A stretch of 64,000 bases of DNA, taken from the NCBI GenBank assembly GCA_964016885.1, contig OZ024740.1, forward strand, positions 419,368,001-419,432,000, in the 5' to 3' direction. A model generated the notes under the pieces. It was given only the letters and a program-made list of their open reading frames with translations. It searched no databases and was not told the origin of the DNA. Positions 29,722 to 30,203 of the stretch are shown in pieces. A program made the translations under genes and the position numbers. This stretch comes from Eledone cirrhosa (lineage: Eukaryota). Every line of letters begins with the position of its first letter. Within the stretch, counting starts at the first letter, position 1.

Positions 29722-29752
29722 ATATATATATATATAGGTTTTAATATAGATG

Positions 29753-29803
29753 AGATTCTACAGAACTAGAACTGTTTCATTCTTTAGAAATCATCAGAAA
29801 TCT
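29753..29803 (-). ncRNA. Type-I hammerhead ribozyme motif
   Basis: Minus strand reads AGATTT-CTGATGA-T-TTC-TAAA-GAA-T-GAA-ACAG-TTCTAGTT-CTGT-A-GAATCT. Confidence 0.75.
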
Positions 29804-30009
29804 GAGAAAATAAGGAGTGGCACCCCATTCTGAACTTGTTTACAGAATTCTTTATGCCTTTGTTACTCTAAATATAAATTATAGCTTTGAAGAATTAGCT
29901 TTTAATGAATTCCCTTTTCTATCAACCAATAACCTCCACCCATCCCACTCCCCACCCTCTCCTACCACCTGAAGAGACCTATAAACACCATATTTATTTT
30001 TTGATACCC

Positions 30010-30060
30010 AGATTCCTGATGATTTCTAAAGAATGAAACAGTTCTAGTCCTGTAGAATCT
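30010..30060 (+). ncRNA. Type-I hammerhead ribozyme motif
   Basis: AGATTC-CTGATGA-T-TTC-TAAA-GAA-T-GAA-ACAG-TTCTAGTC-CTGT-A-GAATCT. Stems are 6, 3 and 4 bp, the triplet is GUA, and cleavage is predicted after 30054. Confidence 0.8.
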
Positions 30061-30203
30061 CATCTATATTAAAACTTTTATACTCTGCAATGTATTGAGT
30101 ACATTACTTACTGTGGTTACCTCCGAATAACGTATATATATATATATGTATATATATATGTATGTATATATATATATGTATGTATGTATATATATATATG
30201 TAT

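Follow-up and report, generated by a model that had tools for sequence, protein, structure and literature searches.

The 64,000-nucleotide window analysed here, a stretch of the Eledone cirrhosa genome, carries at positions 29737–30132 an insert of 396 bp that lies between two (TA)n tracts (Table 1). The insert is built around two inverted arms of 67 bp each (29738–29804 and 30009–30075) that are complementary at 65 of their 67 positions and enclose a spacer of 204 bp (29805–30008), an anatomy that agrees with the inverted 67-bp arms and ~205-bp spacer described in the original prediction. The two arm differences described there were also found, and both are compatible with the hammerhead fold: one (29798/30015) changes C-G to U-G at the base of stem I and the other (29764/30049) affects the final base of loop III. 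The same prediction had the element end at 30075, but this is not the case, as the right arm is followed by a one-sided tail of 57 bp (30076–30132) before the second (TA)n tract begins. With (TA)n flanking both ends of the insert, any target-site duplication is unreadable within the repeat. No open frame spans the insert, and the single long ORF between pLTRs that is a feature of autonomous Penelope-like elements (PLEs) is absent, all six frames of the 396 bp carrying stops.

Table 1 Features of the 396-bp insert, its flanks, its second copy and two inserts of similar build (window coordinates)
Feature	Position	Strand	Remarks
Near-perfect 166-bp palindrome with 43-bp tail, between (TA)n tracts	14300–14508		
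Insert with ~51–54-bp inverted arms and ~50-bp tail on the inverted side, between (TA)n tracts	21160–21659		
Left (TA)n/(TATG)n tract, pure (TA)n beside the insert	28358–29736	.	Inferred insertion target
Single extra base between left arm and TA tract	29737		
Left arm: tail-less inverted 67-bp copy of family 3' end	29738–29804	-	Outer end mirrors 30075, one of two fixed family ends
Left type I hammerhead motif	29753–29803	-	Predicted cut after 29759; U-G at stem I base
Spacer: upstream non-coding body of repeat family, 5'-truncated at ~29805	29805–30008	+	Relatives continue beyond 29807–29812; stops in six frames
Right arm: sense copy of the same 3' segment	30009–30075	+	From arm comparison
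Right type I hammerhead motif	30010–30060	+	Predicted cut after 30054; U-U at stem II base
One-sided 57-bp tail	30076–30132	+	Family sequence to ~30126; high depth to 30128 in 4/4 runs
Right (TA)n tract	30133–30203	.	
Identical second copy of the whole insert	35480–35875	+	Inside ~5.8-kb tandem duplication

The arms and spacer of the second copy (35481–35818) show 0 differences in 338 positions. That this copy derives from a segmental duplication and is not an independent insertion, as had been proposed, is confirmed by the surrounding DNA: five unique, non-microsatellite islands of the ~5.8-kb tandem duplication (window ~26700–39400) are identical over 1745 bp, with 0 mismatches, and the lengths of the microsatellite tracts differ between the two copies. 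Either the duplication took place very recently or it is an artefact of assembly.

Two further inserts in the window, at 14300–14508 and 21160–21659, are unrelated in sequence but share the build of inverted ends, a one-sided tail (43 and ~50 bp, respectively) and (TA)n on both sides. The tail of the first and the tail at 30076–30132 share their final three bases, those that precede (TA)n. The second has one type I hammerhead motif, located just outside the arm, with a 48-nt stem II region, a palindromic stem III and a predicted cut after 21601; it carries one motif because its short arm stops before the motif, whilst the insert at 29737–30132 carries two because its short arm runs just past it. 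A decayed inverted-repeat element (40179–40415, 75% self-complementary) lies beside a TA tract and is either an older PLE stump or a MITE. Under relaxed settings, a hammerhead scan detected no motif in either 14300–14508 or 40179–40415.

Other repeats are found nearby. Two LINE copies (16662–19530 and 22355–25987), which we take to be RTE-like, are 95% identical, encode an endonuclease, RVT_1 and a PHD-like finger following the RT, and are broken by stops. A repeat of 460–590 bp is present four times (15610–16139, 26035–26602, 27897–28357 and 30204–30796), each copy being followed by a long (TA/TATG)n tract; it has a C2H2-like motif in one frame, gives no Pfam match and is likely to be the 3' end of a microsatellite-seeding LINE. 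An open frame of 175 amino acids at 1294–1821, also with no Pfam match, resembles a fragment of a DNA transposase.

Hammerhead motifs and predicted folding

Each arm contains a type I hammerhead motif made up of a 6-bp stem I, CUGAUGA, a 3-bp stem II, GAAA, a 4-bp stem III with an 8-nt loop and a GUA cleavage triplet, with H17 at 30054 on the forward strand and at 29759 on the reverse strand and the predicted cuts directly after these positions. The descriptor used (stem I of at least 6 bp, stem III of at least 4 bp) had 0 matches in all 100 block-wise dinucleotide shuffles of the 49,587 unmasked bases of the window. At the base of stem II, however, a U-U pair is present where G10.1-C11.1 is expected, a pair called highly conserved in PLE hammerheads in the account of Cervera and de la Pena (2014, PMC4209133). 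Rfam searches at gathering scores gave 0 matches across the window, and of seven matches at E ≤ 10 within 29700–30140 none was to a hammerhead and all were judged to be chance. The proposal that each arm holds a complete hammerhead, one per strand, thus stands as far as the presence of a motif in each arm is concerned and needs qualifying as regards completeness, given the U-U pair and the lack of an Rfam match.

Folding was examined with ViennaRNA, whose values are secondary-structure predictions that exclude tertiary contacts and protein. The probability of the 13 hammerhead pairs is 1.6e-3 for the right core alone, 2.7e-5 for the left core alone, 3.8e-5 for the right arm within its spacer and tail, and ~1e-46 to 1e-51 for the full insert. 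Even an arm freed of its antisense partner is therefore predicted to adopt the hammerhead fold only rarely, and a transcript of the full insert is predicted not to cleave. In the lowest-energy fold of 30019–30064 the 3' strand of stem I, together with its flank, is paired to the catalytic core, which as an alternative structure would hold the ribozyme off, and cofolding of the arms as trans dimers gave no hammerhead fold. Folding bears out the original expectation that the two arms of a transcript would form a hairpin competing with the ribozyme fold, as both ribozymes are buried in it; this burial reads as a by-product of insertion and not as a designed switch.

Within the family, loop II positions 30027, 30028 and 30030 vary. 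The letters of the loose-end consensus point to a subfamily whose stem I is paired in a different way, and the variation, whose two sides come from separate reads, is consistent with covariation.

The repeat family in public sequencing runs

Of 16 public runs listed, four were mapped to the insert at 80% likeness: X1 and X14 (two studies of organism A, X1 possibly being the source sample), X4 (organism B) and X7 (organism D). The records mapped comprised 7751 contigs for X1, 5819 reads for X14, 35 contigs for X4 and 18 contigs for X7, and the insert belongs to a very high-copy repeat family. In X1, X14 (a restriction-site library, the depths of which are biased as a result) and X4, depth is maximal over the hammerhead and tail and drops towards the 5' side; in X1 it is 1.9 million at 30031–30044 and 8770 at 29807–29820, these being summed contig depths that do not equate to copy number. 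The X7 profile is flatter, with its top bin within the spacer and zero depth on the left arm. Subfamilies that differ upstream could account for part of the 5'-ward drop. Read ends that pile up in X14 at 29849, 29893, 29896 and 29908 were considered as RNA or element ends and rejected, as all fall on AATT and are taken to be restriction cuts.

The family has two fixed 3' ends. One lies behind 30076, where family sequence passes into (TA)n in 418 X14 reads and one X4 contig, and mirrors the left end of the insert. The other, seen in X1 in the consensus of 70 contigs, lies shortly behind 30121/30126 and is again followed by (TA)n. The inner joints, by contrast, are variable. Among the 15 of 70 joints that were listed, 12 are inversions at differing points and three read as direct tandems with a period of ~73–78. 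Nine of the inversions lead from antisense arm to sense arm at differing points with little or unknown intervening sequence, the other three strand switches being 30013/30013, 29893/29996 and 30033/30084. Further inversions and direct tandems appear among the 12 of 55 joints of a second listing. X7 has one arm-to-spacer joint, its breakpoints (29996/29893) being other than those of the insert. The insert's own joint is the reference joint and so is absent from such listings by construction. The abundance of the family, its fixed outer ends and its variable inner joints are, like the anatomy of the insert, direct observations.

The direct tandem joints, which run from ~30072–30079 to 29996–30007, would place two same-strand hammerheads ~73–78 bp apart. 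PLE hammerheads are thought to act as dimers in such same-strand pairs. Metagenome scans with two arm patterns gave 0 matches each, and a literature search within a limited collection found no paper on this repeat family.

A proposed Penelope-like origin

We propose, with a probability of about 0.85, that the 396-bp insert consists of the 5'-truncated, hammerhead-bearing 3' end of the repeat and, in inverted orientation, a shorter copy of that end, placed head to head in a single insertion by a PLE enzyme. The PLE endonuclease would make cuts in the two strands of a (TA)n tract. Of the ends freed in this way, one would prime reverse transcription at the far start site (the end of the tail), copying ~328 nt, and the other would prime at the near start site (30075/6), copying 67 nt. 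The two cDNAs would then be joined head to head, and the copy would later have decayed and been duplicated along with its 5.8-kb surroundings. As the short arm has barely the length needed to take in the motif, this geometry would leave two outward-facing hammerheads and a hairpin. We infer both the enzyme and this order of priming; fold-back of the first cDNA onto itself, a form of self-priming proposed in PMC3846280, is a possible alternative that would give an identical product.

The insert agrees with a truncated EN+ PLE insertion in several features: an inverted, 5'-truncated 3' end placed head to head with its sense copy; a one-sided tail, here of 57 bp, lying between two fixed end points; a 3'-proximal type I hammerhead motif (the U-U variant); and membership of a dispersed family whose copies have a fixed 3' end, are truncated to differing extents on the 5' side and include partial tandems. 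The first of two readings offered in the original prediction, the end of a PLE with a partial pLTR in inverted orientation, accordingly finds support in the one-sided tail, the (TA)n flanks, the fixed ends and the variable inversion points. We file the insert as a truncated EN+ PLE-type insertion because of this architecture and not because of a protein; no gene for the telomerase-like RT or the GIY-YIG endonuclease of a PLE parent was tied to the hammerhead family, the RT frames scanned in the window all lying in the LINE copies, and the parent could be a non-autonomous family.

Comparison with described systems places the arrangement among the already published kinds of PLE insertion. The typical PLE, as outlined by Craig et al. 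(2021, PMC8557442), has an inverted 5'-truncated copy at its 5' end and a tail of 30–40 bp at one end, the one-sided tail being drawn in the legend to their Figure 2 and described by Arkhipova et al. (2013, PMC3846280). The insert shares with the EN+ PLE insertions covered in these accounts the head-to-head inverted 3' copy, the one-sided tail, partial direct tandems, the (TA)n target and a hammerhead near the 3' end; it differs in having no coding part and in the length of its tail (57 bp versus 30–40 bp). A bias towards (TA)n is reported for Hydra and Naiad and one towards microsatellites for Neptune; the canonical core of the insert's hammerhead argues against Naiad. Truncated PLEs of Schistosoma mansoni are described as carrying opposite-strand dual minimal hammerheads 100–700 bp apart (Cervera and de la Pena 2014, PMC4209133). 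The insert likewise has two opposite-strand type I motifs, ~200 bp apart, but differs in its short 3-bp stem II, with U-U replacing the conserved G10.1-C11.1, and in its 4-bp stem III, which is capped by a loop of 8 nt.

The closest experimental parallel comes from the anole Poseidon element PAc, for which in vitro work describes two start sites that bound the tail and a reaction in which each of the two target strands is cut and extended (Frangieh et al. 2024, PMC11167929). By analogy, two-start-site priming on both strands may have operated at the insert, which has two tail-bounding end points and an AT-rich target in common with PAc. The PAc hammerhead is reported there to be silent without protein, in agreement with the poor fold predicted for the insert. 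The two differ in that the PAc ORF begins inside the hammerhead, whereas the ATGs in both motifs of the insert reach a stop within 5 codons.

Competing explanations

One extension of these observations is that a hairpin subfamily, in which an antisense and a sense hammerhead meet at the ribozyme's 5' edge, is itself a self-propagating non-autonomous element, with 30009–30013 acting as a programmed turn-around point for reverse transcriptase. A deep spacer-less hairpin joint leads from 29797 to 30010 (depth 694 in X1), a palindrome at 30013 is present in six X1 contigs and 40 X14 reads, and loose ends pile up at 30012/30013 among the 24 of 384 that were listed. The pile-up leaves room for the idea, as do the deep joints that have no spacer and that could equally come from a fixed palindromic subfamily, but we consider it unlikely; fold-back chimeras formed during library making are a possible source of the hairpin joints. 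The 396-bp copy itself would even then be a one-off product. Were such a subfamily to exist, PLE hammerheads would gain a cleavage-independent role in ending cDNA synthesis, and the open question of what these hammerheads do could be put directly to the existing in vitro system. A mini-hairpin in the cDNA at the inner edge of the arm was also considered as a cause of the turn and set aside as weak, the whole 45-mer having only -1.6 kcal/mol.

The second reading in the original prediction was of a ribozyme-bounded unit with fixed ends that moves on its own. As considered here, this would be a non-autonomous arm-spacer-arm-tail unit of fixed structure that, once transcribed, a PLE enzyme retrotransposes in one piece, the hairpin silencing or timing the ribozymes. 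Inverted forms do recur in the family, the 29797-to-30010 joint and the 30013 palindrome being deep, and PLE enzymes can, in the account given in PMC3846280, mobilise unrelated DNA between pLTRs. The outer ends are indeed fixed, but the inner points vary and direct tandems occur, an outcome that the original prediction itself had named as refuting such a unit. The joints that recur, moreover, have no 204-bp spacer and are not alike. The majority of spacer reads depart at the arm/spacer junction in X14, X4 and X7: depth in the junction bin and in the next bin is 64 and 297 in X14 (so that at most ~1 in 5 spacer reads can cross the junction), 5.6 and 12.6 in X4, and 0 and 16.3 in X7. In these last two organisms, three contigs (two from X4, one from X7) extend at least 39 letters past 29807–29812, reaching non-arm sequence. 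X1 (54,550 in the junction bin and 8770 in the adjacent one) is uninformative on copies with the exact junction because arm reads fit in two places, and leaves room for a small subfamily that has it. The sole second copy seen sits within the duplication, and the insert has private differences from the family majority, at 29843, 29854, 29931 and 30103 for example. None of the 24 of 8037 pieces that were listed spans the stretch, a gap that proves nothing. A fixed unit is, in our view, decidedly improbable.

It has also to be asked whether the insert is a fragment of an animal retrozyme, a tandem hammerhead repeat that spreads via circular RNA, inverted by DNA repair within the microsatellite. 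Animal non-LTR retrozymes are short non-coding repeats with a type I hammerhead, are probably moved by PLEs and have been proposed as non-autonomous PLE derivatives (PMC7229834; 10.64898/2026.07.22.740005), a description that the insert fits in its motif and its short non-coding repeat and that its family fits in its direct tandem joints of period ~73–78. As defined in those sources, they require at least two hammerheads in direct tandem; short direct tandems occur elsewhere in the family, but the insert has no such pair, its motifs lying on opposite strands. Its inverted arm stops, moreover, at a fixed end of the family itself, a point that repair acting at random would not single out, and the same build is seen in two unrelated inserts, making a retrozyme fragment very improbable.

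That the insert is a MITE whose terminal repeats are the 67-bp arms and whose target is TA, the repeats happening to hold a hammerhead, is scarcely credible in spite of the long inverted repeats, short non-coding interior and TA-rich flank, as MITE repeats form both termini of a structure fixed across copies, whereas here the right repeat is not terminal (the tail lies beyond it, and family sequence continues for 50 bp further at high depth in 4/4 runs), no TA abuts the right arm on its outer side, the inner joints are variable and depth leans strongly to one side.

If the insert is, as we propose, the product of a single PLE-enzyme insertion, it matters little as such, being another stump of a known insertion type. 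What modest value it has lies in providing, from a genome, a case in keeping with the priming on both strands at two start sites that was observed in vitro, one window holding three unrelated inserts built in this way.

Further single hammerhead motifs are present elsewhere in the window. Those at 42400 (+) and 43274 (-) are of type I, with a short palindromic-type stem III and U-U at the base of stem II, and lie 50 and ~197 bp upstream of TA-rich tracts, respectively. A weaker variant of the hammerhead core is found at 31313/37114 (-).
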